From a virus (lineage: Duplodnaviria; Heunggongvirae; Uroviricota; Caudoviricetes): a stretch of 64,000 nt of DNA. Position 1 is the first letter of the stretch; each line of letters starts with the position of its first letter. Below are positions 1 to 61,537 of the stretch, piece by piece. The position numbers and the translations under genes were made by a program. The stretch lies in IMG/VR virus record IMGVR_UViG_2721755711_000002, one strand, 5' to 3'. The notes beneath the pieces were generated by a model. That model made no database searches. It was not told the DNA's origin and worked only from the letters and a program-made list of their open reading frames with translations.

Positions 1-1020
1 TTACTTACTGACCACAAGAGGTAGATCCAGTGTTGGCGTGATTTTTGTTTTGCGATCATAAATCAACACCTGATTTTCTGTTTTGTGCCCACTGAAAATT
101 TGTTTGTCGCGGCTGCTGCCTTCGTAATCTGAAATCCCTTTGGCTTTTATGTCATGGAAGTTGCACCCAAACGGAACGCCGGCTTTTTGCTCGGCTGCAC
201 GTTTAGCCTGATTCCACCAGTTGTTCAGCGTTTTAGCTATGACCTTCCCGCCTTTGGTTGTGTTGATCACATACTCGCATGTGCCGGAAGATACATTTCG
301 GGCTAATTGGATCACTGTGCGTAATCGTGGAGACCATTCCTTGATTTGTTTAGTGCCGGTCTTGTTTTGCTCAATGTAAATCCCTTTATCCATAATATCC
401 TGCCATTTCAGCTCGAGTACATCACCGAGCCTTGCCGCACAAAGATAGGATATCTCCATTGCAATACGTAACTGTGGAATTGCTTCCGCATATATTGCAG
501 CATACTGTTCATCGGTGATGTAAACAGTACGGGCTTTAAGTGTGAATTTTCTGACTCCTTTGCATGGATTATTTTTCACATACCCACGCTCATATCCCCA
601 TCCGTATACACGGCTCAGACTTGCCAGTTCATGGTTTGCCTGGGTCTTGCTCTCAAGTCCTCGCTTATCCATGAAAATTCTTACCTGTTCAATTTTTACA
701 TTATCAGCAAGCACTTTTCCGAATACTGCCAACAATGCCCTTTGATGTTGCCGATAATCTTTTTGGGTTCGGGGGGCCAGTTCTGTAAATGCAGGGGAGT
801 CCATAAACATGTGCCATAATTTAGCTACTGTCATTATGTTGTGGAGTTTTGCTTTTTCCAGCTCATAATTTTGCCAGACTTTAGCTACGCTGGTTTCCCG
901 CACTCTTCCGAGCCCTATAGTTCTTGTGCTTCCTTCGGGTTTCCATACGTAACTGTAACCATTCGATCTAACACGCGGTGGTAGTGCATTATCTTTTTTG
1001 TTTTTTCTTGGTCTTCCCAT
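1..1020 (-). CDS. int: Tyrosine-type site-specific integrase, complete (stop codon at window positions 1-3)
   Basis: 339-aa ORF with phage-integrase-like sequence; Xis-like ORF overlaps its start; position at prophage left edge. Confidence 0.85.
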   Translation of the reverse strand: MGRPRKNKKDNALPPRVRSNGYSYVWKPEGSTRTIGLGRVRETSVAKVWQNYELEKAKLHNIMTVAKLWHMFMDSPAFTELAPRTQKDYRQHQRALLAVFGKVLADNVKIEQVRIFMDKRGLESKTQANHELASLSRVYGWGYERGYVKNNPCKGVRKFTLKARTVYITDEQYAAIYAEAIPQLRIAMEISYLCAARLGDVLELKWQDIMDKGIYIEQNKTGTKQIKEWSPRLRTVIQLARNVSSGTCEYVINTTKGGKVIAKTLNNWWNQAKRAAEQKAGVPFGCNFHDIKAKGISDYEGSSRDKQIFSGHKTENQVLIYDRKTKITPTLDLPLVVSK

Positions 1021-1306: not shown

Positions 1307-3814
1307 TTAAAAATCAACCGGATTCGGGATCAGTTTTTGCCAGATTGCTGAAACGTATTTTGCCTGGTGACGGGCGTCATCCAGTGCATTGTGGCGCACG
1401 CCTTCGAATGGAATAACGGTTTTGGCATCAAAGTCGATTGTTTTTCCCAGCTCAACGATTGTGCGTACATCGCGATCGTTGTGGTAGCGCCACGGGCAGG
1501 GGATCTCCAGACGTTCGTATGAGGTGCGCAAAATTGCGTTATCGAAAGTTGCACCATTACCCCATACCTGAACGAATTTTTCATCTGAGTATTCGTTGAT
1601 GAACTCCCGAAACCGCGAAAGGGCATCCTTCAGTTTTACCTGGTCTGTTAAAATGGCAGCTCTGGCTTCACTGGACTGCTTCAGCCACCATTTGATGGTT
1701 CCACCGTCAGGAGCAGCCCCTGTATTCATTGCGTCAGTCAGACTGATAACGATATAAAATACTGGCCCGATTTCCCCTGTTTGTGGGTCGAAGAAAACCG
1801 CACCAATAACCACGATGGGCGCATTGGTGTTGGTTCCCATTGTTTCAAGGTCGATCATCAGGTGGTACCACACTCTGCTGGTGGATGTGATAACGTGATG
1901 ACCGTTCACCACAATTAAGGGATCTGCCGTCTCACCAGTTTCATTATCGCTGGTGTGATGCTGATCGTTACCAGCATTCTCATTGTTCGGATGTTCAGCG
2001 CCTTCCATTTCCTCCGGATCATCTTCCTGAACTTCAGCCTGATTTTTTTCATCGAATGTTTCCTGGTATGTTGCGTTGCCCATCACCGCGCCACAGTCAG
2101 GACAGTTGCCGCCGCCGGTCTGACTGCAGGTGGTGCAGACTTTTTCCGGTTCTTGTTGCTCTTTTGGTTCAGGCTGTTTCGTTTCTGGCTCGTTTTGTAA
2201 CGCATTTGGGCTGTTTTGTTCCGCTTTCTGGTCGTTTTGTAACGCATTTGGGCTGTTTTGTTCCGCTTTCTGGTCGTTTTGTTCCGATTCGGGCTGGTTC
2301 TGGTTCACAGAATCGCGGGTTTCAATCCCCTTAACCCATTTCGGATCATTCGGGTCGCTAATTCCGTCAACGAACTCACCGCGATGGACTGCCAGTATTT
2401 TGTCGGCATCAGGCTGGTTGATATTGGCTGCCTGCATAATTTTGTTTACTTCGTCAGCGGTAACTTTTACCTGTTTAACTGGATCTACCTGTTCCTGAGT
2501 ATCCAGCGATTGCGTGTCCTGGTGATGTTCAGTTGTATCCGGCTCCATTGCTTCGGCCGTTGCCTGTTCATCTGCCATTGCGTCAGACGGTTGTGATTTT
2601 TCCTCATTATTTTTTTCTTCTTCTGTTTCGCGTTCAGCAGCCAGTTCGCGGTTAACTTCTTCCAGGATATCTTTTTCCGGTGTATGTCGTGCAGCAGTGA
2701 GAGTTTCCTTGCTGGGGTTCTCGTGATCAGTCTCCGTTAAGTGGGCGTTGATATACCCCTGAAGGCGTCCCGGGTAGTGATAAAACTCAGGGTGAGCGCT
2801 CCGGATAAGTGCAAAAATAGCGGCGCGGGAATAATCCAGAATACCCGGGGTTGCGCGAAGTGCTGCGGACCATTCTTTGAACGGACTTTCTCTTTTCAGG
2901 ACGATTTCTTTTGCGCGACGATAAACGCTACCCGGAATTTCATAAATATTAAAATCCATCGGAAGTGTGGCTGCTGCAGTCTCCACATCCAGCGTATCGA
3001 AGGTGTGTACTAAATTCGGATTGCGATCGGTTTTGTTCCCGCCACCGGCATTTGCACCGGAAGCCGTACGGGTGATACGCGAAACACGATTTCCTTTCAT
3101 CCACTCTTTTGTCAGCAGACCGCGATCGGTGTAGTCGGCGTCCAGGTATGCTTCGATAAAAGAAGTTATCAGTCCCAGGTCCGAATTTACGGGGGCGGGG
3201 AAAACTTTGTCAGTGTCTCGCACCAGTTTGTGGAGATCGCGAATCTCCAGCGGTTCGAGTTGCGCTGCTTTATTTGAGATAGCCAGCGCGGTAACGGCGG
3301 GAAGTTTTTCATCCTGTGCGTTATGTAATGCGCGCAGTTCGTCCCGCGAAACGTGTGTGATCGGTTTTTCGCTGCCGTGCTGTGCCAGCCATCGAACAGG
3401 CAGAATCTGACCTGAAACCGGCAGGAGCATGTTCTCCTCAATCTCAGTCATGTCTTCGCCGTTGACGTTGGTATTGTCAGTGTTGGCTGGTTTATCCTGA
3501 ACAGAGGGCGAGGGCGCGATAAGTACCATTGTGATACCATCTTCCCCGCCTTTTTCGTATCGGTTGCAGAATTCGGTATCAAACACGCCTTCCGGAGGAA
3601 GGTCATTCACAACGGGTAAATGGACGCGAACAGGTTTTTTAAAGTCGTCTTCATCATAATCGTTGTCATCCATTGCGGTAATGCAGCGGGAGATGGCAAC
3701 AGATAATTTTTTTGCTGTAGTCCAGTAAAAACCACCTTTAATTCCAAGGCGTTTTCTGACTTTGTCATTTTTTGCTTCACAATATAATGCAAATTCTTCT
3801 TTATCAGTGCTCAT
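1307..3814 (-). CDS. Large exonuclease with C-terminal DnaQ-like (DEDDh) 3'-5' exonuclease domain and acidic repeat-containing N-terminal region
   Basis: 835-aa ORF; C-terminal motifs MIDLETMG, WGNGATFDNAIL, HNALDDARH match Exo I/II/III of DEDDh nucleases; sits in the lambda exo position. Confidence 0.7.
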   Translation of the reverse strand: MSTDKEEFALYCEAKNDKVRKRLGIKGGFYWTTAKKLSVAISRCITAMDDNDYDEDDFKKPVRVHLPVVNDLPPEGVFDTEFCNRYEKGGEDGITMVLIAPSPSVQDKPANTDNTNVNGEDMTEIEENMLLPVSGQILPVRWLAQHGSEKPITHVSRDELRALHNAQDEKLPAVTALAISNKAAQLEPLEIRDLHKLVRDTDKVFPAPVNSDLGLITSFIEAYLDADYTDRGLLTKEWMKGNRVSRITRTASGANAGGGNKTDRNPNLVHTFDTLDVETAAATLPMDFNIYEIPGSVYRRAKEIVLKRESPFKEWSAALRATPGILDYSRAAIFALIRSAHPEFYHYPGRLQGYINAHLTETDHENPSKETLTAARHTPEKDILEEVNRELAAERETEEEKNNEEKSQPSDAMADEQATAEAMEPDTTEHHQDTQSLDTQEQVDPVKQVKVTADEVNKIMQAANINQPDADKILAVHRGEFVDGISDPNDPKWVKGIETRDSVNQNQPESEQNDQKAEQNSPNALQNDQKAEQNSPNALQNEPETKQPEPKEQQEPEKVCTTCSQTGGGNCPDCGAVMGNATYQETFDEKNQAEVQEDDPEEMEGAEHPNNENAGNDQHHTSDNETGETADPLIVVNGHHVITSTSRVWYHLMIDLETMGTNTNAPIVVIGAVFFDPQTGEIGPVFYIVISLTDAMNTGAAPDGGTIKWWLKQSSEARAAILTDQVKLKDALSRFREFINEYSDEKFVQVWGNGATFDNAILRTSYERLEIPCPWRYHNDRDVRTIVELGKTIDFDAKTVIPFEGVRHNALDDARHQAKYVSAIWQKLIPNPVDF
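2191..2274 (-). repeat. Perfect in-frame 42-bp tandem duplication (2 copies) inside the exonuclease gene
   Basis: cgttttgtaacgcatttgggctgttttgttccgctttctggt occurs twice back to back; encodes duplicated 14-aa unit QNDQKAEQNSPNAL. Confidence 0.85.
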
Positions 3815-4280: not shown

Positions 4281-4832
4281 TATCGCGTCCTCAACAATGA
4301 ATTTTGTGATGCGGTGCCTGGTGCCTCCAGGTGACGTTAACCAGTTAACAATTAACGCCGGAATACAGGGACCCGCCTGCAAGTACCTACCCATAAGTAT
4401 TGATACGGAGAACAAATGGTCTTTTAACTGTTCCGCGTGCGCTTAGCCGCATTCACCACATCACAAAATTCACTTTAAAAAGGGCGGACATCAGCCAGCA
4501 ATTAAACTGATGCCGCCAAAGGTCAATACTCAACATGGAGTGTTGTAGCGGGGTTGTCACTTAAGCGTATGGTCAACCTGCCAACCCGGTGCCACAATGG
4601 GGTAAGGATAACCCCGCCATACTTACCGCCGCGCCATTTCGCGGAGTGCCACAACCGGAAGCGCACGGTCGAAGAAATCTAACGACAAGACTTCTAAGGA
4701 AAAGAAACCTTCGCCGTGCGATTTCGTGTTGTGTGCCTGCTTTTAACCACATCAGGCGAGGTGGTTCCTGTTGTTCCCCAACAACAAGAAATTTGTATAA
4801 TCCGGATACCCCAACAACACAGAGAGTTAAGA

Positions 4833-5351
4833 ATGCTATCTGGAATAACTTCATCAATAACGGCAATTAAAGTCTCGATTGATTTATTACAGGTAATACT
4901 TGATGCAAAAAGCCAATCTGAACGTGAAAAGGCTGTCTACGAAATGCGTCGCCAACTGGCAGACTTACAAATACAGAACGCAGAGCTAGCGAAAACGCTC
5001 GCGCTTCAGTACGAGGAAATACTCTTGCTTAAGCAAAAATGTCATGAAATTGACGAGCGTAATCGAAAACTTGAATGCTATACGATACACAAAACTGGTT
5101 TTGGGCATTTTGTCTATGCTTTCAGGAACAGCCTCGACGAAGAAGACACATGTTTTCACTATGCCTGTCCCAATTGCTATCAGCATGGTGTAATAGCAAT
5201 ACTTCAACCTGTTGAAATTGGTGAGCATGATAAGTTCCATATTTCTAAATGCCTGAAATGTGATTCGCGCTTTAAATTTGAACGCAATGATGACTATATA
5301 CCGCCCCCATCTGAAGAAGAGATAGGTAGAGCATTGAGCAGCAATCCGTAG
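4833..5351 (+). CDS. Hypothetical coiled-coil protein with C-terminal CxxC...CxxC zinc-ribbon-like motif (moron candidate)
   Basis: 172-aa ORF on opposite strand to neighbours; AT-rich by eye; upstream TGTATAAT extended -10 at ~4793-4801. Confidence 0.5.
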   Translation: MLSGITSSITAIKVSIDLLQVILDAKSQSEREKAVYEMRRQLADLQIQNAELAKTLALQYEEILLLKQKCHEIDERNRKLECYTIHKTGFGHFVYAFRNSLDEEDTCFHYACPNCYQHGVIAILQPVEIGEHDKFHISKCLKCDSRFKFERNDDYIPPPSEEEIGRALSSNP

Positions 5352-6160: not shown

Positions 6161-6397
6161 TCAGTCAGTATTTCTGGCTAACCAGCGACGCGCGCCAGCT
6201 TCGGTTTTAAACGTTTTGCTTTTGGTATACGTCATCGCGGTGAACGTACCGTCCTGGTTTGGAAACACGCCGTATACCAGAGATTCGTTGTTGCCAAGAT
6301 CGATAGTATCCATGCTGACCTCATTTCCCCTTAACGCCGGGGTAGCGGAACAAAAACCTGCTGCATAGTTAAAGTTGAACCCTGCCGTCATGTTCAT
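6161..6397 (-). CDS. Small hypothetical protein, first gene of leftward early operon
   Basis: 78-aa ORF immediately downstream of operator-like palindromes; stop abuts next gene. Confidence 0.45.
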   Translation of the reverse strand: MNMTAGFNFNYAAGFCSATPALRGNEVSMDTIDLGNNESLVYGVFPNQDGTFTAMTYTKSKTFKTEAGARRWLARNTD

Positions 6398-6495
6398 ACG
6401 CCTCGGGCTGGCTACTTAACCCCTGACCACAGCCTGGTAACTCGAAGTATTGCCCTGCGTTCTGTGGGGCGGAGTGGGTTGGCATGAAAGGAAGG

Positions 6496-6534
6496 ATACC
6501 CATGGGTATCCAAAAAGTAAATACCCATGGGTAA
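6496..6534. promoter_or_regulatory. Two copies of palindrome ATACCCATGGGTAT (second 13/14), OL-like operator candidate
   Basis: Perfect 14-bp palindrome at 6496-6509 and near-copy at 6521-6534, between repressor 3' end and leftward early genes. Confidence 0.4.
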
Positions 6535-6577
6535 TTTTTTTTGAGGTGTCTTAACTGGTGATTGGTTGTTTGGTTAG

Positions 6578-6997
6578 TTATGATGCGTTTTGTGCTTTCT
6601 TTTTACGGATTTCTTCGTAGATCATATTGTAATACTGTTTTTTCTCTTCAAGAGTTTTTAATAAGTTATCCGCTTCACTTTCTGGCAGTTCGTCTAAGAG
6701 ATCTAAAAAAATACGTTGTCGTGGCGTTAGAACCCTTGTTTCATAATTGGAGGCTGTGTTCGTTGATGATGAAACGATACCATCCATCCATCCTCGGGGT
6801 AACCCAAAGGACTCTTCGATAATCTCCACCATATCATCAGCGATCCGTTTTTTTCCCTTTTTCCCCTCTGGGTACAACATTCTTGATACATAAGAAGGCT
6901 CGCGACCGATTTTTCTGGCTACGTTAACCGCTTTACCATCGCATTTCTCATCACGAATTTTGATGAGTTGCTGTCGTCTAAATTCATATTTGTCCAT
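6578..6997 (-). CDS. Prophage repressor-like DNA-binding protein (Rac RacR-like position; no S24 peptidase domain recognised)
   Basis: 139-aa ORF divergent from Cro-like gene; HTH-like segment VNVARKIGREPSYVSRML. Confidence 0.55.
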   Translation of the reverse strand: MDKYEFRRQQLIKIRDEKCDGKAVNVARKIGREPSYVSRMLYPEGKKGKKRIADDMVEIIEESFGLPRGWMDGIVSSSTNTASNYETRVLTPRQRIFLDLLDELPESEADNLLKTLEEKKQYYNMIYEEIRKKKAQNAS

Positions 6998-7030
6998 AGG
7001 TAAATAATAGATGCGATTACCGCAAGGTAA

Positions 7031-7069
7031 ACAACCTGTAGGTATTGACTTTTGTTTACCTGTGGGTAT
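7031..7069. promoter_or_regulatory. OR-like operator/promoter region with direct repeats CCTGTRGGTAT
   Basis: Repeats at 7035-7045 and 7059-7069 in the repressor-cro intergenic region; share GGGTAT half-site with the 6496 palindromes. Confidence 0.35.
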
Positions 7070-7097
7070 TCTTTGCTGTGTTTACTAAGGAGTAGCT

Positions 7098-7379
7098 ATG
7101 GAAGAATTAAGAATATTTCTCAATTCTCTTTCGTCAGATGAACAGCGTATGTTTGCATGCGAGTGTGGTACCAGCATCGGTTATCTAAGAAAGGCATTGA
7201 GTAAAGGTCAAGTGTTAGGGGCATCGTTATGTGTCCTTATTGAGCGAGCCAGTAATGGTGAAGTTACACGTCAGCAACTAAGGCCTTTTGATTGGATGAA
7301 TATTTGGCCCGAGCTGGAAGATACCAAAACGTTAACACAACCACTTTCTAGGAGCTTGATTCATGAAAATCAAGCATGA
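7098..7379 (+). CDS. Cro/YdaS-like small HTH regulator
   Basis: 93-aa ORF with AAGGAG site, divergent from repressor; followed by YdaT-like gene. Confidence 0.55.
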   Translation: MEELRIFLNSLSSDEQRMFACECGTSIGYLRKALSKGQVLGASLCVLIERASNGEVTRQQLRPFDWMNIWPELEDTKTLTQPLSRSLIHENQA

Positions 7380-7788
7380 ACACATCCGCATGGCGATGAA
7401 TGCCTGGGCGCATCCAGACGGTGAAAAAGTTCCGGCAGCTGAAATAACCCAGGCTTATTTTGAGTTGGGGCTGACGTTTCCTGAACTGTACGACGACAGC
7501 CATCCGGAAGCCCTGGGCCGTAACACCCAGAAAATTTTCCGCTGGGTGAAGAAAGACACTCCTGATGCGGTTAAAAAAATTCAGGCGTTGTTACCAGCGA
7601 TCGAAAAAGCAATGCCGCCTCCGCTGGTGGCCCGAATGCGCAGCCACAGTTCCGCTTATTTTCGGGAGTTGGTAGAGACGAAGGAACGGCTGGTGAAAGA
7701 TATTGATGATTTCGTTGCATCAGCGATCGTTCTGTTCGATCAGATGAATCGTGGTGGCCCGGCAGGAAACACTCTGGCTGTGCATTAA
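7363..7788 (+). CDS. ydaT: YdaT-like protein (Rac prophage toxin family)
   Basis: 141-aa ORF starting MKIKHEHI as recalled for E. coli YdaT; position after Cro/YdaS-like gene. Confidence 0.5.
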   Translation: MKIKHEHIRMAMNAWAHPDGEKVPAAEITQAYFELGLTFPELYDDSHPEALGRNTQKIFRWVKKDTPDAVKKIQALLPAIEKAMPPPLVARMRSHSSAYFRELVETKERLVKDIDDFVASAIVLFDQMNRGGPAGNTLAVH

Positions 7789-7801
7789 TTGGGTAATAAA
7801 T

Positions 7802-8311
7802 ATGAGTAATGACAAAAAATTGACACTGAGCGTTTACGAAAACAGTCCGCACATCTGGCGTGGCGGTTTATCTGATATGGAGCTGGCAGAGTGGTTGATA
7901 CATAAAGCTAATGCGCTGCTCTGGCGTTTGTCAGCCAGAGAACAGCGCAAGGAAACCAGAATAAAGCTGGCTGATGCAGAAGCGTGTGCCGGGCTTATTG
8001 AGGATTATACAAATCTTGGTATTTCTTCAGCAGAGAGTGATCCCATTCAGCCTCTGAGCAGGGAGTCAATCCAGCACGCTGGTTGTATGGCACATCTTGT
8101 AACTGCTCGTCAACATGAGGTGGGTATTGGATCACTTCCGGTGGGATATTCGCTGATTCCAGAGCTGGTTGAAGCAAGAAAATCAGTTCAGAAAAAGAGA
8201 GATGACGCACTTCAATTATTGAGAGAGCACTATGGCGCGATACCAGAATGCGAACAGCGTCGATACCCTGAAGGTTATGAATGGATGCAGTCTCTTTTTG
8301 AAGTTCGCTAA
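7802..8311 (+). CDS. Hypothetical early protein
   Basis: 169-aa ORF from MSNDKK; a similar-length antisense ORF exists, so strand is uncertain. Confidence 0.35.
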   Translation: MSNDKKLTLSVYENSPHIWRGGLSDMELAEWLIHKANALLWRLSAREQRKETRIKLADAEACAGLIEDYTNLGISSAESDPIQPLSRESIQHAGCMAHLVTARQHEVGIGSLPVGYSLIPELVEARKSVQKKRDDALQLLREHYGAIPECEQRRYPEGYEWMQSLFEVR

Positions 8312-8528
8312 TCAATATGTCGAGACGAAGGTATGTTTCGGCGCGCAGCCAGGCTCTGTAATCCGGGAGCATTTCGGGGCTGTTACACCAGCGGTTTGTT
8401 GCTGCAACATTTAATACATGAGCCTGATAAAGGCTTTTCAAAAAATACATGTCGAACCTCCTCTGGTTCTGTCGATTGGGCACCACAGATTATATCCGGA
8501 GGAAGGTTCGGCACCAGATGAGGTAGCC

Positions 8529-18379: not shown

Positions 18380-19921
18380 ATGCCAACAGTTCCAATTTCT
18401 ATGAGAAAACTTAAAGAAATTCTTAGGCTTAAATACGGTGTTGGACTCAGCCATCGACAAATTGGTCGTAGTCTTGCAATCTCCCCTTCCGTTGTATCCA
18501 GATATGCTAATCGGGCGGCTCAACTTGGCATAAAGCAGTGGCCCTTACCTACAGGATGGGATGATACAAAACTAAAACATGCGTTCCTTCAGACCCAGGT
18601 TAAGATGAAGAAGCACTCTCTGCCTGACTGGGCTACAGTACACCGGGAACTGCGTAATAAATGCGTGACGCTGCAGCTACTCTGGGAAGAATACTGTGAG
18701 CGTAATCCAGGCGGTTTTTACAGCTATAACCATTACTGCCGGATGTACCGTGAATGGCTCAAAACCACTTCACCATCAATGCGTCAGGTACATAAAGCTG
18801 GCGAAAAACTTTTCGTTGATTACTGTGGACCTACCGTTGGCGTTACCGACCCTGAGACCGGAGAAATAAGAACTGCTCAGGTCATCGTAGCTGTTCTCGG
18901 GGCATCAAGTTACACATGGGCAGAGGCCACCTGGTCTCAGCAGCTTGAAGACTGGGTGATGAGTCATGTTCGCTGCTTCCAGTGGTTGGGTGGCGTTCCT
19001 GAACTTGTTGTTCCGGACAATCTGAAAAGCGCCACATCCAGGGCATGTAAGTATGATCCTGACGTTAACCCTACCTACCAGCAGATGCTTGAGCATTATA
19101 ATGTCGCAGTTTTGCCTGCGCGGCCACGTAAACCGAAAGATAAAGCCAAAGCTGAAGTTGGCGTTCAGGTTGTTGAACGCTGGATCATGGCCCGAATCAG
19201 GCATGAGATCTTCTACAGCCTTGCATCGCTTAATCAGCGCATTCGGGAGTTGCTGGAAAGACTGAATAACAAAATAATGCAGAAGTTGGGTTATTCACGT
19301 GCAGAACTCTTCATCCAGCTTGATAAACCCGCACTGAAGCCTCTTCCTGAAGCCAGTTACAGTTACACCCTGGTGAAGAAAGTCAGAGTTCATGCCGATT
19401 ACCACGTGGAAATCGACAAACATTACTACTCGGTTCCATGTTCGCTGTTAGGCCAGCAACTGGAAGCATGGATCTCCGGAGAACTGGTAAGACTCTTCAA
19501 TCAGGGGCAGGAGGTTGCTGTGCACCCGCGCAAGCGTACTTATGGCTACAGTACCCGCAACGAGCACATGCCTGAAGCTCATCGACAGCATGCCACCTGG
19601 ACGCCAGAGCGTCTTCTGGAATGGGCGGGGCACATAGGCAGTGAAACTCATAGTTATGTGCTTCATATACTGAACTCTCGTCCACATCCGGAACAAAGCT
19701 ATCGCTTCTGCCTTGGACTCCTGAACCTTCATAAAAAATACAGTAAAGCCAGACTTAATGCAGCATGTGCAAGAGCTCTGAAAACAAAGGTATGGCGTCT
19801 GTCAGGTATTAAATCGATCCTGGAAAAAGGTCTGGATAAACAACCTGTTCAGGATCCAAAACCAGATCTGTTATCCACGATGGAACACGAAAACGTACGC
19901 GGCAGTGAGTATTACCACTGA
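18380..19921 (+). CDS. istA: IS21-family transposase IstA
   Basis: 513-aa ORF with N-terminal HTH and DDE integrase-like core. Confidence 0.85.
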   Translation: MPTVPISMRKLKEILRLKYGVGLSHRQIGRSLAISPSVVSRYANRAAQLGIKQWPLPTGWDDTKLKHAFLQTQVKMKKHSLPDWATVHRELRNKCVTLQLLWEEYCERNPGGFYSYNHYCRMYREWLKTTSPSMRQVHKAGEKLFVDYCGPTVGVTDPETGEIRTAQVIVAVLGASSYTWAEATWSQQLEDWVMSHVRCFQWLGGVPELVVPDNLKSATSRACKYDPDVNPTYQQMLEHYNVAVLPARPRKPKDKAKAEVGVQVVERWIMARIRHEIFYSLASLNQRIRELLERLNNKIMQKLGYSRAELFIQLDKPALKPLPEASYSYTLVKKVRVHADYHVEIDKHYYSVPCSLLGQQLEAWISGELVRLFNQGQEVAVHPRKRTYGYSTRNEHMPEAHRQHATWTPERLLEWAGHIGSETHSYVLHILNSRPHPEQSYRFCLGLLNLHKKYSKARLNAACARALKTKVWRLSGIKSILEKGLDKQPVQDPKPDLLSTMEHENVRGSEYYH

Positions 19922-19932
19922 TACGGGATCCA

Positions 19933-20682
19933 ATGATGAATCATCTTTACGAACAACTGACCGCACTTAAACTCACCGGCTTCCGTGATGCGCTTAAAAA
20001 GCAACTTGCTCAGCCGGGCACATACCAGGAGCTGGGCTTCGAAGAACGCCTGTCATTACTGACAGCAGAAGAACTAACCTGCCGTGAAAACAGGAAGGCA
20101 GAGCGTCTGATCAAACATGCACGGTTCAGACTTAATGCTGAGTTATCAAAGCTGGATTATCGTAACAATAGAGGGCTGGACAGGGCCCTCATCCGTTCAC
20201 TCAGTCAGGGAAACTGGTTAACCCTGAAACAAAATATTTTACTGACCGGGGCCACCGGCAGCGGTAAAACGTTCCTGGCATGTGCACTTGGTCATAATGC
20301 CTGCCGACAGGGATACAAGGTCTACTATTATCGCCTTAAAGCGCTGATGGAACAGTGCTATCAGGGGCATGCTGATGGAAGATACAGCAAACTTTTGACC
20401 AGGCTGAATAATAGCGATCTGCTGCTTCTGGATGACTGGGGGCTGGAACCTCTCTCATCAGAACAGCGTAGCGACCTGCTGGAAATAGTGGATCTGATGT
20501 ACCAACGAGGCTCAATCATCGTAGTGAGCCAGTTGCCGGTGGAAAACTGGTACAAAATGATCGGAGACTCCACACATGCGGATGCCATCCTAGATCGACT
20601 GGTTCATGGCAGTATCAAGATCGAACTTAAAGGAGAATCAATGCGGAAAATACAATCTCCGTTGACCGAAGGAGATCAGTGA
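19933..20682 (+). CDS. istB: IS21-family helper ATPase IstB
   Basis: 249-aa ORF with Walker A LTGATGSGKT and Walker B LLLLDDWG. Confidence 0.9.
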   Translation: MMNHLYEQLTALKLTGFRDALKKQLAQPGTYQELGFEERLSLLTAEELTCRENRKAERLIKHARFRLNAELSKLDYRNNRGLDRALIRSLSQGNWLTLKQNILLTGATGSGKTFLACALGHNACRQGYKVYYYRLKALMEQCYQGHADGRYSKLLTRLNNSDLLLLDDWGLEPLSSEQRSDLLEIVDLMYQRGSIIVVSQLPVENWYKMIGDSTHADAILDRLVHGSIKIELKGESMRKIQSPLTEGDQ

Positions 20683-21410: not shown

Positions 21411-22835
21411 CTACGCAATACGTATGAACAAACCAATCATGACACTGGCTGACCCGGCAGACCCGAGCCCGTCACCTGACAGTGCCCGATATGACCCCGG
21501 CATACCACCACCAGAACCCCGCACATATACGGAAACGCTGCCGTTATATCCAACCCCGCTACCGGTCGTGCCGTGACACATAAATTCAACCGCGCTCAGG
21601 CGTGACCCCGGATAGCTGTAACCGCGTTTTATCCGGCGGTCGGTGTCTGCGTCTCCCTTACCGTTATAAGCCGCCAGTACAAGACTGCCTGCACCGTACC
21701 AGCCGTCCGTGGTACCGGGAGCAATACCGGACAGAAGAGAGATAATGTCCTGTGAGGTCATCTTCAGATTTTCCCAGCCAGTCAGATAACCATTACCTGT
21801 TGTCCAGTAGCGGTTGTAATAAACATCGCCATTAATACCGTAGAAAATAATGGCCTTTGCTGTATATCGCGGCTCCGGTGGATTATTGCGTGCCTCAACC
21901 CACCGGATGCGGACCATCCCGTTAAACAACACACCTCCGGATATGATTTTACTGTCACCCTCAACAAAATATTCACCCGGCGTCGCATTCCTTACCCAGG
22001 ACAGAAAATCATCCTCTGTGTTAAAACGGATACGCTCTGCGGGCAAAAAAATATGCCCAAAACCAAATGCGCCAGGTGTCGCCAGACGACCTTCAGTCCG
22101 GTCACGAATGTCGCTCTGTGGCGTCATTGTGGCTGCGCTTTTCAGTCCAAGATTATCACGGGATTCCTGCTGAGCCTCTTCACCTTCATCAGCCAGCTCT
22201 GATAAACGATTCGCCGTTTTCAGTGTCGCAGATAACGCAGTATCAATATCTGCTCTGGCCTGCTCTGCACCGGATGCGGCCTTTTTCGCGGCTTCAGCAT
22301 CCTGCCTGACCTCCGCGGCGGTATCCTCAACCCGTGAGGCCAGAGTTTCGACCTGTTGTTTACCCTCCGCAACCGCGTCGGCGTTCTGCTGTACGTCTTT
22401 CGCCAGCGCCTGACAGTCGGCCTTAATCTGCTGTGCATCAGTGGCGTGTTGTCCTGCCTGTTGTTCGCTGCCAGCGGCGGCTTCTGCGCTCTGCTGCGCC
22501 TGTGCCACCATTTCCTCAAAGCGTTTTACCACGTCGGGTTTGAGGTCGCCTTCATCGGGGGCGGTCAGAAAGTCGTTCAGCGTGCCGGGCTTTGAATCGT
22601 CATAAACAGCAATATTCCCCACGCAACATTTCGGGCCGTTCTTTTGTTTTATATGAACGGCATATTTTCCTGTCTGCGCTTCAAAGGCATACTGTCCCGC
22701 CGCATCGGTTTCAATAACCGCAAATGATTCAATAACCACTTCACTGGTATTAACCAGTGCATCTAAATAAATTTTGCATTCCGCCATCGGAACGCCAGTG
22801 CCATTAACAAGTGCACCTGAAATTAATACAGACAT
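21411..22835 (-). CDS. Side tail fibre protein (lambda Stf-like N-terminal domain)
   Basis: 474-aa ORF; N-terminus aligns with lambda Stf (ISG.L.DGTG...YEDSQPGTLNDFL). Confidence 0.8.
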   Translation of the reverse strand: MSVLISGALVNGTGVPMAECKIYLDALVNTSEVVIESFAVIETDAAGQYAFEAQTGKYAVHIKQKNGPKCCVGNIAVYDDSKPGTLNDFLTAPDEGDLKPDVVKRFEEMVAQAQQSAEAAAGSEQQAGQHATDAQQIKADCQALAKDVQQNADAVAEGKQQVETLASRVEDTAAEVRQDAEAAKKAASGAEQARADIDTALSATLKTANRLSELADEGEEAQQESRDNLGLKSAATMTPQSDIRDRTEGRLATPGAFGFGHIFLPAERIRFNTEDDFLSWVRNATPGEYFVEGDSKIISGGVLFNGMVRIRWVEARNNPPEPRYTAKAIIFYGINGDVYYNRYWTTGNGYLTGWENLKMTSQDIISLLSGIAPGTTDGWYGAGSLVLAAYNGKGDADTDRRIKRGYSYPGSRLSAVEFMCHGTTGSGVGYNGSVSVYVRGSGGGMPGSYRALSGDGLGSAGSASVMIGLFIRIA

Positions 22836-28146: not shown

Positions 28147-29479
28147 TAATCACCATCCCGGCGGTTATGTTGTTCGGGTCACGCAGCTGCGGGTTCAGAC
28201 GTTGCAGCTCTGCCGCACGGCTGTAATCACCGTACCACTGCCACGCCAGCAACAGCAGACAGCTGTCCGCCTGCACCTGTTTCTGCGTCAGCGGTGGGCG
28301 GCGTGACAGAACCAGCAGGCCGACATCCTGCACGGATGCCGCCACGTTCTTCATGCTCTGAATGATTTCCGGGTACATCAGCCCCAGCGGTGATGCGGTT
28401 TCGGTTATCCGTTCGCGTTCGCCTTCATAGCGTTCACGGAACAGCGTGATGGCGGCCTGTAAGCGGGTGCGCACATCCCCGACCAGTCGCCCGATATCCG
28501 CCGGTATAAGCTGCTCTGACTGGGCTTCATCGGACAGTATCGCCGTCGCCACGCTGGCCAGCTCTGAGGCTGCCAGAACCGCATAAGCCGCTTTCACGTC
28601 CTGCACGTCTTCCACGGACGCATCCGGCGGAAGTGCCACAGACGGCGTTTTATCGCCGCTGACCAGTGCGACCGGCAGCGCGACCAGCTCATCCATATCT
28701 GCCATCACCTCATTCCAGCAGGTCATCACTGTCGCAGAACTGGCGACGCTGTCTTCCCCGGTCAGTCCGGTCGTGGTGGCGGAATCAGTACGCTCCAGCA
28801 CCGGCACCGCGTGCCCGACATCTGACGTGTGGATTTCCAGCACCTCTGCCAGCCCGCCGATGAACTTTCCGGGTTCGCTGGCCAGTGACATCATATTGTC
28901 GATGGATGAGAGAAAATCGCTTTTGAACGTCAGCAGGGTATTCACCAGCGTGGCACGCACCGTCTGGATTTTTTTTATCACGCTGTTAATGGTCTTTAAA
29001 GGGGCCGTAACAGCGTCAAATAATTCGCTTAACTGTGCCAGTAACTTATCCAGTTCTTCAAATAACTGCTGTGCAAACAGCTCCGGTAACGGGGTGCTGA
29101 ACAACGCGCTGCCGGTGCGGTTCTCCAGAAAGCTCATGTCGATGGTGCAGCTGTCCGGGCTTTCTGCGTCATGGCGAATGCTGTAGCCGGTCACAATCAC
29201 CGACGGTACGGAGCCGTAAACCGGGTGAATCAGCTCACCATCGCCGCCTTCGTCCAGGGCGGCGATCAGCTTTTCAAGTTTATATTCGTAATACTCCCCC
29301 CACAGGAACGCCGTCATGCGGAACGGTCGCGCCTTGCGTCCGAGGTCGTGCAAATCCGCCCCGTCAACAAACGGGTATTCATAGACCGCATGGTCGCGGC
29401 TGATTTGTTCGTCCGTGTTCAGTACATCAAACTGCACGCCACGAAAGGAGGCGTTTTGCAGGTTTTCAGCCCAGCCCAT
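28130..29479 (-). CDS. DNA circulation protein (Mu N / gp43-like)
   Basis: 449-aa ORF directly after tape measure. Confidence 0.65.
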   Translation of the reverse strand: MGWAENLQNASFRGVQFDVLNTDEQISRDHAVYEYPFVDGADLHDLGRKARPFRMTAFLWGEYYEYKLEKLIAALDEGGDGELIHPVYGSVPSVIVTGYSIRHDAESPDSCTIDMSFLENRTGSALFSTPLPELFAQQLFEELDKLLAQLSELFDAVTAPLKTINSVIKKIQTVRATLVNTLLTFKSDFLSSIDNMMSLASEPGKFIGGLAEVLEIHTSDVGHAVPVLERTDSATTTGLTGEDSVASSATVMTCWNEVMADMDELVALPVALVSGDKTPSVALPPDASVEDVQDVKAAYAVLAASELASVATAILSDEAQSEQLIPADIGRLVGDVRTRLQAAITLFRERYEGERERITETASPLGLMYPEIIQSMKNVAASVQDVGLLVLSRRPPLTQKQVQADSCLLLLAWQWYGDYSRAAELQRLNPQLRDPNNITAGMVINAYAK

Positions 29480-31761
29480 CAGTAAGTTCCTCCCGTGCCT
29501 CTGTTGCCGTCCTGAAGGTTGTATTTGTTCACTGCCTCCGCCACGACCTGACCATCGAGCACCAGTTGTGTGGTGAAATTAATGGGGCTGGCAGGTGGTC
29601 CCCAGTGCGTGAGGTATTCCGGCTGGGTGATGCGTCCGGGTTGCTTTGATGCTGTTTCAGACGCTGCCATTCCGGCTTGCTGTCGGACTTGTTCTGGTGT
29701 TGGCAGAGAATCACCGGCGATAACCCCGGTTTTTTTCAGTTCGTCAAGATACTGCTGGATCCATTTCTCGTTTTCTGTTGAGTAACCTTCGCCAAACTGC
29801 CACCACGGCTGATATTTTTCACGGGCAGCATCAATCAGCCACTGAGGATATTTAGCCCGTATATTTTTCCAGCGCTCCTCGCTTCCTTCGACGGCGGCGT
29901 CTTCTTCCGGGCTGGTTGCAGTGGCCAGTGCCGTAACGGTGCCACCGAAAGAAAGCAGGCTACCGGCAATGCCGGGGAATTTAAATCCTTTGCCTTTTTT
30001 GACCGTGTTTTCAATTACATCACCGACAACCTCGCCAGCCTTGCCACCGGGTTTACCCCCGGTCAGGATTTTGATCCCGGCCCATGTCAGAGCCGCTGCG
30101 GTCATCGCTTCAATGGCTGTCGTGGCACCCACCACTGCTGTGGTCAGCCCCGGAAATTTTTCACCCGCCCAGCTTATGGCATCGGCCACAGTACCGGACG
30201 CATCAGCCAGCTTTTTCATGCTGTCCATTTGTGAAAATTCAAGCGTGTTTTTAGCCTGTTCGGTTTTAAAATCATTCGTGCCTGACATGAATTTAAAATC
30301 CAGATCTCCGGCGCGCTGACCTTCTGGCAGGGTGCGTTGCTGACTGATTTCAGCTTCGACCTGCTTTCGGTATTCCGGGTTATTCCTGTAAGCCAGGATT
30401 GCCTTCAGTGCCTGCATATCACCGACAAGCTCACCAACACCGAACCCCTCAAGAATTTTCGCCATAGACTCCAGAATTTTGTCCTGCTGGCCTTTGTCTT
30501 TTGTTGCTGCCAGGCGCTTCTGAAGCTCCTGATATTGTTTGTTGTTCGCGGCGACTTTATCAGCAAGGCGTGAAAATGCCTCTATCGGATCAATGCCGTT
30601 TTCCATAGCTCGGGTCAATGTACCGGGTAAATCAATACCCTTTCCATCAATCGTGATGCTTTTCGCCCTTGTTGCTGATTCACTACTGAAAAGTTTGGCC
30701 AACAGGTTTACAACGTTATTACCTGCCTCACTGCTGCTGCCTGCGGCAATACCTGCGACCTCATTAAATGCCAGTAATTTCTGGAATCCATCCAGTCCTT
30801 TCATTCCGGCGTTACCAGCTAACGCCATCTGAGGTCCAAGATGCTCCGCCATATCCCGTAGCTCAAAATTACCGGCTTTACCGGCTGCAATAGCCATATT
30901 AAACATGGCCGGAAGATCGTTGTCTGTCAGTCCAAATGTTTGCTTAGCTTTGGCCGCCATAGTGACCAGATCGCGTGGGGATGCACCGGATGCAGTAGCA
31001 AATTTCATAATCTGCGGTAAGAGATTATTCGCGGTATCCCAGGAAAAAGCGCCGCTGGCCAACATCTCATTCATTGCTTCAGCTGCATCCTCTTTCGTTC
31101 CGCCACCATACGTTACCGCCGCGCGGATACTGTTTTTCAGCTTTTCACGCCCAAACTGCCTGCCTTCCAGACCACCATCACTGAACGCCGTGTTCGCCAT
31201 CATGCTGAGCTGACGTTCATAACTCATTTGATTTCTGACTGGTTGCGTCATAATGGCGGCCCCTGCCATAATTCCGCCGCCTATTGTCACGGCATTCCCG
31301 CCAAATGCAGCCGCACGGGCAAAACGCCCCCGTTCAGGGATAACAGGCGTTTTCGCCATCTTCATCTGAGCCTGAGTGACGCCATCCAGTTCACGCTTGA
31401 GTGCCCGGGCTTTTTCCCGGGTGGCCTGCATGGCGCGCTCCTGCTCCTGCGCAGATTCAAAACCGGCGCGGGCCAGACGGTTATAGCTGGCAACCGTCTG
31501 ATAAATTTCACGCCGGATTTCACGTTCTGCACGAATACCGAGCGTTTCCCGGGCACGGGCGGCACGCTGTATCTCTTTTGCCGCCTTTTTCGTGCTGTTA
31601 ATGCTTTCCTGCTCGGTACGCTTCTGCTCTGCGCCTGCCTTCCGTGTCGCCTTTGTTACACCTTCGGTGGCTTTGATAACCTGTTTTTGTCCCTTTTCCA
31701 GAACCTGCGAGGCTTCGTCCTTCGCAGTCAGGGTCATGCCAACTTTGAAATTACCGGCCAT
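29479..31761 (-). CDS. Tail tape measure protein
   Basis: 760-aa ORF, Ala/Gly-rich with central hydrophobic segments. Confidence 0.85.
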   Translation of the reverse strand: MAGNFKVGMTLTAKDEASQVLEKGQKQVIKATEGVTKATRKAGAEQKRTEQESINSTKKAAKEIQRAARARETLGIRAEREIRREIYQTVASYNRLARAGFESAQEQERAMQATREKARALKRELDGVTQAQMKMAKTPVIPERGRFARAAAFGGNAVTIGGGIMAGAAIMTQPVRNQMSYERQLSMMANTAFSDGGLEGRQFGREKLKNSIRAAVTYGGGTKEDAAEAMNEMLASGAFSWDTANNLLPQIMKFATASGASPRDLVTMAAKAKQTFGLTDNDLPAMFNMAIAAGKAGNFELRDMAEHLGPQMALAGNAGMKGLDGFQKLLAFNEVAGIAAGSSSEAGNNVVNLLAKLFSSESATRAKSITIDGKGIDLPGTLTRAMENGIDPIEAFSRLADKVAANNKQYQELQKRLAATKDKGQQDKILESMAKILEGFGVGELVGDMQALKAILAYRNNPEYRKQVEAEISQQRTLPEGQRAGDLDFKFMSGTNDFKTEQAKNTLEFSQMDSMKKLADASGTVADAISWAGEKFPGLTTAVVGATTAIEAMTAAALTWAGIKILTGGKPGGKAGEVVGDVIENTVKKGKGFKFPGIAGSLLSFGGTVTALATATSPEEDAAVEGSEERWKNIRAKYPQWLIDAAREKYQPWWQFGEGYSTENEKWIQQYLDELKKTGVIAGDSLPTPEQVRQQAGMAASETASKQPGRITQPEYLTHWGPPASPINFTTQLVLDGQVVAEAVNKYNLQDGNRGTGGTY

Positions 31762-35030: not shown

Positions 35031-35922
35031 TCAGGCTGCCAGATCATCGTTTCCGATGGAAGCATAATAAGCTTTTTCTGCTTCTGCCGGTGGGATATGG
35101 CCCAGCCTTTCCAGCAATCGTCGATTGTTATACCAGTCCACCCACGTGAGTGTGGACAGCTCCACTTCTGTCCGGTTTTTCCAGCGCTTACGGTGTATTA
35201 CCTCCGCTTTGTAAAGGCCATTGATGCTTCTCCGCCATCGCGTTGTCATACGAGTCACCAGTACTCCCTGTTGATGCCAGTAAGCCGGCTTCCTTAAGCC
35301 GCTGCGTGTAGGCCAGCGATACATACTGAGAACCTTTATCACTGTGGTGGATTGTGCCGGACGGCCGACGGGCCCACAACGCCTGCTCCAGTGCATCCAG
35401 CACGAATGCCGTTTCCATGGATGATGAGACCCGCCATCCCACGATGTATCCGGCGAACACATCAATGATGAACGCCACATAAACGAAGCCCTGCCATGTG
35501 TTTACCCAGGTAAAATCAGCCACCCACAACTGGTCAGGACGTTCTGCCACGAACTGACGGTTTACGCGGTCGCATGCGGCAACGGCTTTCCGGCTGACGG
35601 TAGTGCGGACCTTTTTACCCCGGAGAACACCGGCAAGTCCCATAACCGCCATGAGACGTGCCACAGTGCATCTGGCCACTCTGATACCTTCCCGTAACAA
35701 CTGACGCCAGACTTTACGCACACCGTATACCTGGTGATTTTCATCGTATACGCGCTGTATCTCTTTCTTCAGCCAGTCATCGCGCTGCGCACGGGCACTG
35801 CGTTTATCAGGATGATGTCGCTGTTGCTGACAGTGGTAATACGTTGACGGGGCAATATGCAGTTCGCTGCATACCGGTCCGACCCCGTACTGCTCACGCA
35901 GCTTATCCAGCAGTGGCATCAT
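35031..35922 (-). pseudogene. IS629 transposase orfB interrupted by a 1-nt insertion frameshift
   Basis: ORF pieces 35188-35922 and 35031-35480 are in different frames; extra base in GAGAAGC (plus-strand ~35227-35231) breaks the expected DNAMAESINGLYKAEV. Confidence 0.7.
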
Positions 35923-36245
35923 TTTTTCCAGAGGCGGTCGAACTCCGCCTTCGCAAAATAAGCGGAAGCCTGGCGAAGGATATCGTTACTGCGGCGCAGT
36001 TCACGATTTTCACGTTCCAGCTCTTTCAGACGCTGACGTTCAGCGGTGGTGAGCCCACCATCACCGCCCCCGGTATCCCGCTCATGCTGGCGAACCCAGA
36101 CACGCAGAGTCTCCGGCGTACAGCCAATTTTTGGGGCAATGGAACAAATTGCCGCCCACTGTGAATCATACTCATCCTGACTTTCCAGAACCATACGAAT
36201 CGCTCGCTGACGGACTTCGGGGGAAAAACGAGTATTTTTAGTCAT
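35919..36245 (-). CDS. IS629 transposase OrfA (HTH)
   Basis: 108-aa [24 protein letters not shown]... with leucine-zipper-like C-terminus. Confidence 0.85.
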
Positions 36246-53931: not shown

Positions 53932-54171
53932 TCATTGCCATACGACGGTGCAGCCGTCGATACAGGATGTTTTCACCACGCGGCGCAGGCCGCTGAATGT
54001 CTGGATGATTTCCGTTACCGGCCATACAGGACCACCCACAGGCGGGCAGGCATAAACCACAGGTAAACGGTGATGTTGCCCCGTTACACGACCGCCGGTG
54101 GTGTGGATGGCCACACGGGCACGGGAACGGACGGCATTAATGGTCTGCTTTTCCATCATTTTGTTCTCCAT
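53932..54171 (-). CDS. Hypothetical early protein
   Basis: 79-aa ORF just downstream of B. Confidence 0.4.
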   Translation of the reverse strand: MENKMMEKQTINAVRSRARVAIHTTGGRVTGQHHRLPVVYACPPVGGPVWPVTEIIQTFSGLRRVVKTSCIDGCTVVWQ

Positions 54172-61027: not shown

Positions 61028-61537
61028 ATGGCAACGCAGGCGGAGGTAGCCGAGCATCTTGGTATAACTGAACGCTGGTTGCGGGATCTTCAGAAGCACC
61101 CGGGAGCGCCAAAAAATCGAAAGCGTGGTGAATACGATATTGATGCCTGGCGATATTTTTATATTTCATACCTTAAACGCAAAGGAAGAAGCGATACTGA
61201 TGACGATGGAAATAGCGATTACGAAGAAAAATTACTTATCGCCAGATGGAAATTGACTGAAGAACAGGCAATAGCACAGCAATTAAAAAATCAGGTAACC
61301 GAAGGCAAGCTCATTGATTCTGGGTTCTGCGTTTTCGCTCTCAGCAAACTGGCGATGGCATTGTCCAGTACGCTTGATTCCATTCCTTTATCCATGCAGC
61401 GACAGTTCCCGGATTTAACCCCGCGTCATATCGATTATCTGAAAACCCTTATCGCAAAAGGCGCGAATCAGTGTGCGCGGACAGGGGATAAATTGCCGGA
61501 GTTACTCGATGAATATATCCGAACTACAGCTGAATAA
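61028..61537 (+). CDS. nu1: Terminase small subunit (lambda Nu1-like)
   Basis: 169-aa ORF; central region aligns with lambda Nu1 (FC.F.LS..A...S.LD..PLS.QR.FP.L..RH.D.LK). Confidence 0.8.
   Translation: MATQAEVAEHLGITERWLRDLQKHPGAPKNRKRGEYDIDAWRYFYISYLKRKGRSDTDDDGNSDYEEKLLIARWKLTEEQAIAQQLKNQVTEGKLIDSGFCVFALSKLAMALSSTLDSIPLSMQRQFPDLTPRHIDYLKTLIAKGANQCARTGDKLPELLDEYIRTTAE

Follow-up and report, generated by a model that had tools for sequence, protein, structure and literature searches.

In phage lambda, the right operator (OR) is tripartite, with 24 bp between OR1 and OR2; CI bound at OR2, at about -42 from the start of PRM, activates PRM; the repressor mRNA is leaderless; and a left operator (OL) lies at PL. 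Prophage CP-933P (Sp12) of Escherichia coli O157:H7 also has a PL/OL region, its short repressor, PaaR2, has no S24 peptidase domain and is made from a leaderless mRNA, and the footprints of its Cro (YdaS) and repressor on OR overlap (PMC8630535, PMC9986795). In the Qin prophage, DicA is relieved by the antirepressor Rem (PMC10448788), and the dimeric Gifsy repressors are targets of the LexA-controlled GfoA and GftA, which in some cases come from a different prophage and act in trans (PMC3121763). Here, we describe the immunity region of IMG/VR virus record IMGVR_UViG_2721755711_000002 (Caudoviricetes), of which a stretch of 64,000 nucleotides (nt), hereafter the window, was analyzed. We consider positions 6490-7790 likely to be the bistable lysis/lysogeny switch of a lambdoid prophage. 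By its sequence, the 139-amino-acid (aa) repressor of this switch is a domain chimera, in which a DNA-binding domain of the type found in phage mEp043 CI is joined to a tail of the type found in DicA, and its putative operators share the palindrome TACC-N4-GGTA (N, any base).

The locus resembles each of several described systems in part. With mEp043 it shares the repressor DNA-binding domain (65% identity over 86 residues, with invariant helix-turn-helix [HTH] residues), TACC-N4-GGTA operators in a 3 + 2 layout, the positions of PR, PRM, and PL, and Cro (70% identity). Unlike this locus, mEp043 has a cI of 228 aa with an S24 domain, a lambda-type cII instead of ydaT, and N after PL. CP-933P is similar in the features listed above and in having YdaT as the equivalent of CII, with a YdaT operator identical to the one here, but it differs in having 18-bp inverted-repeat operators with the half-site consensus GTTTAGTAA, a repressor that starts with MQKKE and is reported to form octamers, and a paaA2-parE2 toxin-antitoxin pair behind the repressor gene. 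In our window, no open reading frame (ORF) of at least 40 aa lies wholly between the repressor stop codon (6578) and OL (6533). The possibility that our repressor is PaaR2 itself, which we compared by description only, is ruled out by the published N-terminus, the different operators, and the absence of the toxin-antitoxin pair. DicA and the Gifsy repressors GfoR and GtgR are likewise short (about 135-140 aa), with neither an Ala-Gly cleavage site nor an S24 domain, and DicA additionally has a homologous tail, a DUF1391 gene downstream, and the same kind of chimerism, in its case with P22 C2. These repressors respond to small antirepressors (PMC10448788, PMC3121763), none of which is recognizable in the window, and their DNA-binding domains are unrelated to the one here, so their operators differ. 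Gifsy repressors were not among the 30 records listed, of 36, from a tblastn search of phages at E <= 1e-3, which involved no direct comparison with them.

Two further comparisons concern gene order and architecture. The original prediction had described the region as Rac-like, and this holds for the order of genes (DUF1391 [ydaF], repressor, divergent cro-like gene and ydaT, replication genes) and for the family of YdaT. It does not hold for the repressor, Cro, and operators, which are of the mEp043 type, or for YdaT at closer range, which is of the CP-933P type. RacR is not detectably homologous to our repressor (the best BLASTP match to K-12 RacR has an E value of 2.3, which rules out a RacR homologue), Rac YdaS is 26% identical to the Cro-like protein, and Rac has no TACC-N4-GGTA site. 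The lambda switch provides the overall architecture: a tripartite OR, the same 24 bp between OR1 and OR2, and an OL at PL. It differs from the present locus in having an S24 repressor, operators of 17 bp as opposed to 12 bp, and a structurally unrelated CII in place of YdaT; in addition, OL has only two exact sites here, and OR2 and OR3 are 15 bp apart.

The operators and the other features of the window are listed in Table 1. Four exact copies of TACC-N4-GGTA occur in the window, beginning at 6497, 6522, 7018, and 7057; all fall inside 6497-7068, 0.28 copies would be expected in the window, and none of 100 shuffles reaches four. With one mismatch allowed, the motif is not enriched window-wide (13 found and 12.45 expected), and the only extra copy within the region is the site at 7033. 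Measured between centres, OR1 and OR2 are 24 bp apart, OR2 and OR3 are 15 bp apart, and OL1 and OL2 are 25 bp apart. Several of these sites had been noticed before in another guise. A doubled 14-bp palindrome had been reported on the 3' side of the repressor gene and is present: ATACCCATGGGTAT is exact at 6496-6509, and the second copy, ATACCCATGGGTAa at 6521-6534, matches at 13 of 14 positions, with the last base changed and the 13-mer and 12-bp core exact. The direct repeats reported toward the Cro-like gene are also real (CCTGTAGGTAT at 7035-7045 and CCTGTGGGTAT at 7059-7069), but they do not form a separate class of repeat, as they are the right-hand parts of the 12-bp palindromes AACCTGTAGGTA (7033-7044) and TACCTGTGGGTA (7057-7068). 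The site at 7018-7029 was absent from the earlier listing. The suggestion that the palindromes are operators gains support from the comparison of related loci given below, while the left pair is better read as OL and PL than as a feature of the 3' end of the repressor gene. In our view, there is good support for the assignment of the five putative operators, including the interpretation of the doubled palindrome as OL and PL.

Table 1. Features of the immunity region and of the remainder of the window.
Feature	Position	Strand	Description
OL1, TACCCATGGGTA	6497-6508		Exact motif; overlaps PL spacer and first -10 bases
OL2, TACCCATGGGTA	6522-6533		Exact motif; 25 bp from OL1, abuts PL -35
OR3, TACCGCAAGGTA	7018-7029		Exact motif; overlaps PRM -35
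OR2, AACCTGTAGGTA	7033-7044		One mismatch; between PRM and PR -35 hexamers
OR1, TACCTGTGGGTA	7057-7068		Exact motif; within PR spacer, overlaps PR -10
YdaT high-affinity operator (OM), TTGATTcatgaaAATCAA	7356-7373		Spans ydaT start codon and cro end
PR	7045-7072	plus	TTGACT, 16-bp spacer, TATTCT; promoter scan
PRM-like promoter	7031-7004	minus	-35 TTTACC (7031-7026), 16-bp spacer, -10 TATTAT (7009-7004); promoter scan
Candidate PL	6521-6493	minus	-35 TTTACT (6521-6516), 17-bp spacer, -10 TATCCT (6498-6493); by eye
Repressor gene	6578-6997	minus	139 aa
Cro-like gene	7098-7379	plus	93 aa
YdaT-like gene	7363-7788	plus	141 aa; 17-nt overlap with Cro-like gene
DUF1391 (YdaF/YdfA-like) gene	6161-6397	minus	Pfam DUF1391, E 1.3e-28; first leftward gene after PL
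ORF, 169 aa	7802-8311	plus	PHROG 8304, end-to-end match, E 1.4e-119
ORF, 163 aa	7995-8486	minus	NCBIfam 'ECs1072 family phage-associated protein', 105 bits (cut-off 70)
Integrase	1-1020		Lambdoid prophage
RecE-like exonuclease	1307-3814		Lambdoid prophage
Replication genes	from 8418		Lambdoid prophage
Q	15403-16098		Lambdoid prophage
PemK/MazF-like toxin-domain protein	16213-16692		159 aa; downstream of Q antiterminator, moron-like position
AraC-family regulator	16858-17778		306 aa; downstream of Q antiterminator, moron-like position
IS21-family element	18380-20682		istA (rve and Mu-transposase C-terminal domains) and istB
Tail fibre	21411-22835		Mu-like prophage
Tail tape-measure	29479-31761		Mu-like prophage
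ALIL pseudoknot	35848-35964	minus	Rfam RF01497, 121.5 bits
Mu portal	41401-42996		Mu-like prophage
MuB-like AAA protein	54171-55064		Mu-like prophage
MuA-type transposase	55083-57125		Mu-like prophage
Lambda-type terminase large subunit	61473-63425	plus	gpA ATPase and nuclease domains; beyond Mu-like prophage

If these palindromes are the sites of this repressor, they should accompany its DNA-binding domain. We compared seven loci with a gene for this domain, namely an E. coli O26 prophage (L001), mEp043 (L003), three Yersinia loci with a short repressor (L005-L007), and two Salmonella loci with an S24-type repressor (L009 and L010). All seven have exactly four exact TACC-N4-GGTA sites in an identical 2 + 2 layout. 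In the cI-cro gap, a degenerate OR2 is enclosed by two exact sites 39-40 bp apart, and the left pair, 25-26 bp apart, lies upstream of the leftward early genes (directly upstream of N in mEp043 and Yersinia). No exact site is present in the Rac, Qin, or Tritos loci, which encode other DNA-binding domains. Alignments show no variation in the half-sites of OL, OR1, and OR3 or in the GGTA half of OR2, whereas the central 4 bp, the flanks, and the left half of OR2 do vary. The first base of OR2 in relatives is not T (it is A in mEp043 and O26 and C in Yersinia), and the ACC half-site of OR2 is retained in mEp043 and O26 only. OL1 is conserved in position and half-sites in mEp043, Yersinia, Salmonella, and E. 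coli O26.

The operators are placed with respect to candidate promoters as in a lambda-type switch. The repressor and Cro-like genes are divergent and separated by a gap of 100 bp, which holds PR and PRM. The repressor ATG (6997) is 7 nt past the PRM -10 hexamer, leaving no space for a Shine-Dalgarno sequence, so we predict that the transcript from PRM is leaderless; mEp043 and Yersinia have the same layout, and paaR2 of CP-933P and lambda cI are precedents (PMC8630535). The centre of OR2 is at -41.5 relative to the predicted PRM start at 6997. On the other side of the repressor gene, candidate PL points leftward into the DUF1391 gene, a gene that follows racR in Rac and dicA in Qin in the same position. 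The hexamers aligned with this PL are stronger in relatives, being TAGACA-17-TATATT in mEp043 and TTTACT-17-TATATT in Yersinia.

The repressor combines two modules that are found apart elsewhere. PHROG 5736 ('transcriptional regulator') matches it from end to end (E 4.7e-70), and no Pfam family matches it at E <= 0.1. Its first 74-86 or so residues are 65-85% identical to those of many Peptidase_S24 repressors of 221-242 aa, mEp043 cI included (53-85% for the DNA-binding domain, depending on the relative), and the HTH residues REPSYVSRMLY are invariant in short and long forms. When four S24-type relatives were compared with the whole window by tblastn, only their N-terminal 74-108 residues matched, with no S24 remnant downstream, and by eye the repressor contains no Ala-Gly dipeptide. 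The earlier description of a small repressor without a LexA-type autocleavage domain was thus borne out, and in size (about 130-140 aa), in its N-terminal HTH, and in lacking both Ala-Gly and S24, the protein fits the short DicA/Gifsy type. An AlphaFold2 (AF2) model, with a mean predicted local distance difference test (pLDDT) score of 79.7, has a four-helix HTH domain at residues 3-63, a disordered linker at 64-91, a helix at 92-102, and a long helix at 106-138, the two helices of the tail forming a hairpin. Foldseek on this model returned only generic Xre/lambda-type HTH proteins; the top match, at a marginal E value of 1e-3, was PDB 5d50, Rep in the Rep-Ant complex of Salmonella phage SPC32H, which we did not use for membership, and a search of PDB sequences with the repressor gave chance-level matches only.

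The C-terminal part belongs to a different family. The NCBIfam DicA model aligns through its C-terminal third with residues 84-136 (E 2.5e-5), while the full-length protein scores 24 bits against a cut-off of 101 because the N-termini differ. BLASTP aligns the tail with residues 84-129 of K-12 DicA at 33% identity over 46 aa (E 1e-7), and the pattern L-[ST]-P-x(4)-L-L-x-L-F-x(2)-L-P-x-S-E is present in it, aligned with 29 tail-bearing proteins. In an exhaustive phmmer search of 1.84 billion representatives, every protein found to have the tail was short (117-216 aa) and carried it at its C-terminus, and the HTH N-termini of these proteins are mutually unalignable; with the 54-aa tail as query, a word-indexed search of proteins recovered nothing but fragments of this repressor. 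The repressor is therefore best described from these alignments as an mEp043-CI-type DNA-binding domain joined, after a conserved GWMDGI, to a DicA-type tail of about 50 residues that stands in place of the usual self-cleaving S24 domain and may serve in dimerization. DicA itself has the same construction, with an N-terminal domain 59% identical to that of the S24-type repressor P22 C2, and phage Tritos (L004) pairs a close tail with another DNA-binding domain (its representative matches the tail at 72%; a literature search on Tritos gave unrelated matches only). The cI of phage PhiR42_1 (H64) is 100% identical to K-12 DicA, which suggests that the DicA-type tail is used by complete phages as well as by cryptic prophages.

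We infer DNA binding by the repressor, an order of operator occupancy, activation of PRM, a leaderless start, and an antirepressor; the lysogenic, lytic, and establishment steps that follow are modelled on the architecture of the region, on lambda, and on the CP-933P experiments. In the lysogenic state, the repressor, presumably a dimer, would bind the 12-bp TACC-N4-GGTA sites through its Xre/lambda-type HTH. At OR1 it would block the cro-ydaT-replication operon, since OR1 lies within PR, and at OR2 it would probably stimulate PRM and with it its own leaderless transcript. The overlap of OR3 with the PRM -35 hexamer would allow negative autoregulation that limits repressor synthesis. OL1 and OL2, which flank the PL -35 hexamer and cover its spacer and -10 hexamer, would let the repressor shut PL, the promoter expected to drive the early genes on the DUF1391/kil/recE side. 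In the lytic state, Cro made from PR would shut PRM through the same operators with the opposite order of preference. For establishment, YdaT made from PR would bind TTGATT-N6-AATCAA and turn on a PRE-like leftward promoter, as in CP-933P, so as to establish repressor synthesis.

How such a lysogen would be induced is a separate question. Because the repressor has no S24 domain, RecA-stimulated self-cleavage is probably not the route. The original prediction had also proposed induction by something other than RecA cleavage, a reasonable inference given that the repressor tail is homologous to that of DicA. The likeliest route would instead be a small antirepressor that, like Rem or GfoA/GftA, works either in cis or in trans, together with stochastic switching; we would put the antirepressor step at close to an even chance, or slightly below.

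Several observations weigh against the reading of the region as a lambda-like switch. First, the AF2 model of the repressor is a monomer of moderate confidence, with a predicted template-modelling score (pTM) of 0.49, and a literature search on mEp043 found no study of its switch. Second, the PL hexamers are weak, matching the consensus at 8 of 12 positions, so the promoter scan, with its threshold of 9 of 12, does not call PL; and the 15 bp between OR2 and OR3 compares with 23 bp in lambda, so the rules of cooperativity may differ. Third, a tblastn search of the window found no Rem homologue, and the ORF at 13660-13986, which immediately precedes the DUF968 gene and so lies where Qin has rem relative to that gene, has no similarity to Rem. 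The window contains no credible LexA box either; the best consensus candidate matches at 12 of 20 positions, and a search for CTGT-N8-ACAG gave one match, inside istB. No antirepressor family appears among the PHROG matches of the scanned ORFs, including those of the early right region. With no candidate in the window, the antirepressor step is proposed by analogy. Finally, the lambdoid prophage looks defective, with an IS21 element and a Mu-like prophage following the Q region, and the switch may now just silence early genes.

The lack of a detected antirepressor gene or LexA box and the broken state of the prophage are also what would be expected if the short repressor had no dedicated inducer and formed an uninducible lock on a defective prophage, derepressed only by stochastic switching, by dilution (zygotic induction), or by general proteolysis. 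Spontaneous, antirepressor-independent switching has been documented for DicA/dicBp (PMC10448788) and bistable switching for CP-933P (PMC8630535). We see this alternative as possible but somewhat doubtful. Repressors with the same tail occur in the sequenced phages Tritos and PhiR42_1, for which some means of induction is presumably required. Recognizing small antirepressors from sequence is difficult, and the Gifsy antirepressors can act in trans from other prophages (PMC3121763), so that absence from the window is weak evidence.

The doubled palindrome at 6497-6533 could also be read without any operator, as mainly an intrinsic and possibly bidirectional terminator that ends the repressor transcript, stops convergent rightward transcription, or both. 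The two copies form a hairpin (6494-6542) bordered by an A-rich run and, at the opposite end, by T8, which follows the hairpin on the plus strand. In the terminator scan it appears on the minus strand, with 16 pairs followed by TCCTTCCTTT, and its predicted RNA fold is very stable on both strands (-29.3 kcal/mol on the plus strand and -24.2 kcal/mol on the minus strand, z about -5.2). However, any two similar palindromes can pair, and the hairpin owes part of its stability to the identity of the two sites, as would a by-product of two operators. Among the relatives, the T-run is poor or absent in mEp043 and Yersinia, while the half-sites, the 25-bp spacing, and the positions of the -35 and -10 hexamers are retained. 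In Yersinia L006 and Salmonella L009, the OL pair is 0.8-3.9 kb past the repressor gene, behind other genes, and so cannot be the terminator of the repressor there. The motif of the left pair is, moreover, identical to that of OR. We therefore consider a terminator without an operator pair unlikely and keep the OL/PL reading, although in this E. coli lineage the hairpin possibly serves as a terminator as well.

The related loci differ in what lies between the repressor gene and the OL pair. In both Salmonella loci (4733-5298), this slot holds a ParE-toxin gene with a small upstream partner, which recalls paaA2-parE2 behind paaR2 in CP-933P, and in Yersinia L006 it holds AAA_15/AAA_21 and DNA-methylase genes. 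The slot looks like a recurrent landing site for toxin-antitoxin or defence cargo. In Yersinia L005 and L007 (5287-6126), the gene between that for the short repressor and OL/N encodes a protein of 272-279 aa with a weak match to Bro-N, a domain known from some antirepressors of phages. This protein, which has no counterpart in our window, could be a lead toward the missing inducer.

The rightward operon begins, as first described, with genes of the Cro/YdaS superfamily and the YdaT family. A strong ribosome-binding site (AAGGAG) precedes the ATG of the Cro-like gene by 7 nt. Its product is as close to Yersinia prophage Cro as to Cro of mEp043 (70% identity each), matches PDB 8c7k and 8co2, both named Cro (E 1e-10), and scores 25.8 bits against Pfam YdaS (PF15943), for which the gathering cut-off is 30; it also matches PHROG 35. 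The protein clearly belongs to the YdaS/Cro superfamily. Across loci, this Cro goes with the DNA-binding domain and the operators regardless of the C-terminal domain of the repressor, as is expected of a Cro that uses those operators. The YdaT-like protein is close to a characterized homologue: it matches PDB 3c4r (E 2.7e-82) and 8bt1, which is CP-933P YdaT (E 2.5e-80), with about 90% identical residues in the alignments displayed. It scores 38.9 bits against Pfam YdaT (PF06254; cut-off 21), matches PHROG 163 ('CII-like transcriptional activator'), and is 33% identical to Rac YdaT (E 2e-16). The site OM is the only match to TTGATT-N6-AATCAA in the window, with zero mismatches, and the same motif was footprinted at the same place, the ydaS/ydaT junction, in CP-933P (PMC9986795). 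There, YdaT, a POU-like, tetrameric DNA-binding protein, activates a PRE-like promoter and showed no toxicity (PMC8630535, PMC9986795). YdaT here is probably the CII-equivalent activator of transcription.

This assignment bears on the proposal that the region is a toxin-repressor module resembling a toxin-antitoxin system, in which the repressor restrains YdaS and YdaT toxins, as has been suggested for Rac. The Pfam families are named YdaS_toxin and YdaT_toxin, and silencing of racR in K-12 is lethal through expression of ydaS and ydaT (PMC5700377, PMC5700373). Jobling, however, ascribes this toxicity to the usual effect of over-expressed Cro/CII regulators (PMC5917428), and the lack of toxicity of the closely homologous CP-933P YdaT, whose operator is conserved exactly here, points the same way. 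The Cro-like protein resembles that of a viable phage, mEp043, and both genes occupy exactly the positions of cro and cII, upstream of replication genes. The toxin-containing module of the original prediction is for these reasons not supported, and we consider it very improbable. The view that the 139-aa ORF is a truncated remnant, or pseudogene, of an S24-type cI, prompted by the up to 85% identity of its N-terminal 74 residues to full-length S24 repressors, is scarcely credible given that its last 50 residues are a conserved DicA-tail module with no out-of-frame debris and no S24-coding remnant after the stop codon, that short homologues 51-58% identical to it exist in Serratia and Yersinia, and that the exact protein occurs on at least 1000 contigs.

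The module is common in E. coli. The repressor and its operators are present in 821 of 5426 complete E. coli genomes, among them O157, O26, O111, O145, and ST131 strains, and the repressor is a 'hypothetical protein' in RefSeq in all 12 rows listed of these 821 genomes. The best E. coli matches to the region (6480-7100 of the window) are 96-98% identical, with a top value of 97.7% and none at 99% or above, so the source of the window may be a lineage or sister species that this genome collection lacks. This distribution and conservation suggest that the module is under selection and is not debris.

We tentatively suggest that one immunity specificity, comprising the DNA-binding domain, the operators, and Cro, exists in two forms that differ in induction: one cleavable through S24 and one, with the DicA-type tail, uncleavable. 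The S24 form occurs in mEp043 and in prophages of Salmonella, Yersinia, and Pantoea, and the DicA-tail form in about 15% of complete E. coli genomes, often in defective prophages. If both forms act on the same operators, a resident short-form prophage would supply a trans-dominant, ind- repressor and with it SOS-proof immunity against mEp043-type phages, and it could also keep a co-resident long-form prophage repressed when DNA is damaged. The tail would in that case be an exchangeable module, through which a phage passes from control by RecA to control by an antirepressor. The same exchange of tail and S24 domain separates DicA from P22 C2, and Tritos carries the tail on a third DNA-binding domain. 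Such pairs would be a natural experiment in how the induction route can be swapped between phages without a change of immunity, which bears on prophage induction in strains with multiple prophages, including the biology of Shiga toxin (Stx) phages.

What is new here is the assignment of a common and mostly unannotated repressor, its operator motif, and the pairing of one specificity with either an S24 domain or a DicA-type tail. The types of component and their logic were already known from lambda, CP-933P, DicA/Gifsy, and Rac, and the advance is incremental because the architecture and every type of component have precedents. Assigning a role to the repressor, and locating the TACC-N4-GGTA motif and the promoters, should nonetheless improve the annotation of these prophages, in which the Pfam names 'YdaS/YdaT toxin' are not to be taken literally.

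The rest of the window is a mosaic. Rfam and tRNA scans gave no match in the immunity region, and PADLOC gave no defence-system match for the immunity module or its neighbours. Just past ydaT, two ORFs (7802-8311 and 7995-8486) overlap on opposite strands; the minus-strand one, of 163 aa, is the one annotated by RefSeq in the O26 relative, and a literature search on WP_000362152/ECs1072 found nothing relevant. The lambdoid prophage extends over about 1-18.3 kb. The IS21 element lies directly after the Q, MazF-like, and AraC-like genes and seems to break the prophage before its lysis and late genes. A Mu-like prophage on the minus strand, from about 20.8 to about 57 kb (roughly 20800-57200), adjoins the truncated lambdoid prophage. 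Within it, the ALIL pseudoknot, which we take to be the frameshift element of IS3-family transposases, indicates an IS3-type insertion. Beyond the Mu-like prophage, the terminase gene may mark the late region of this lambdoid prophage, which the Mu-like and IS21 insertions would have divided, or it may belong to another prophage.

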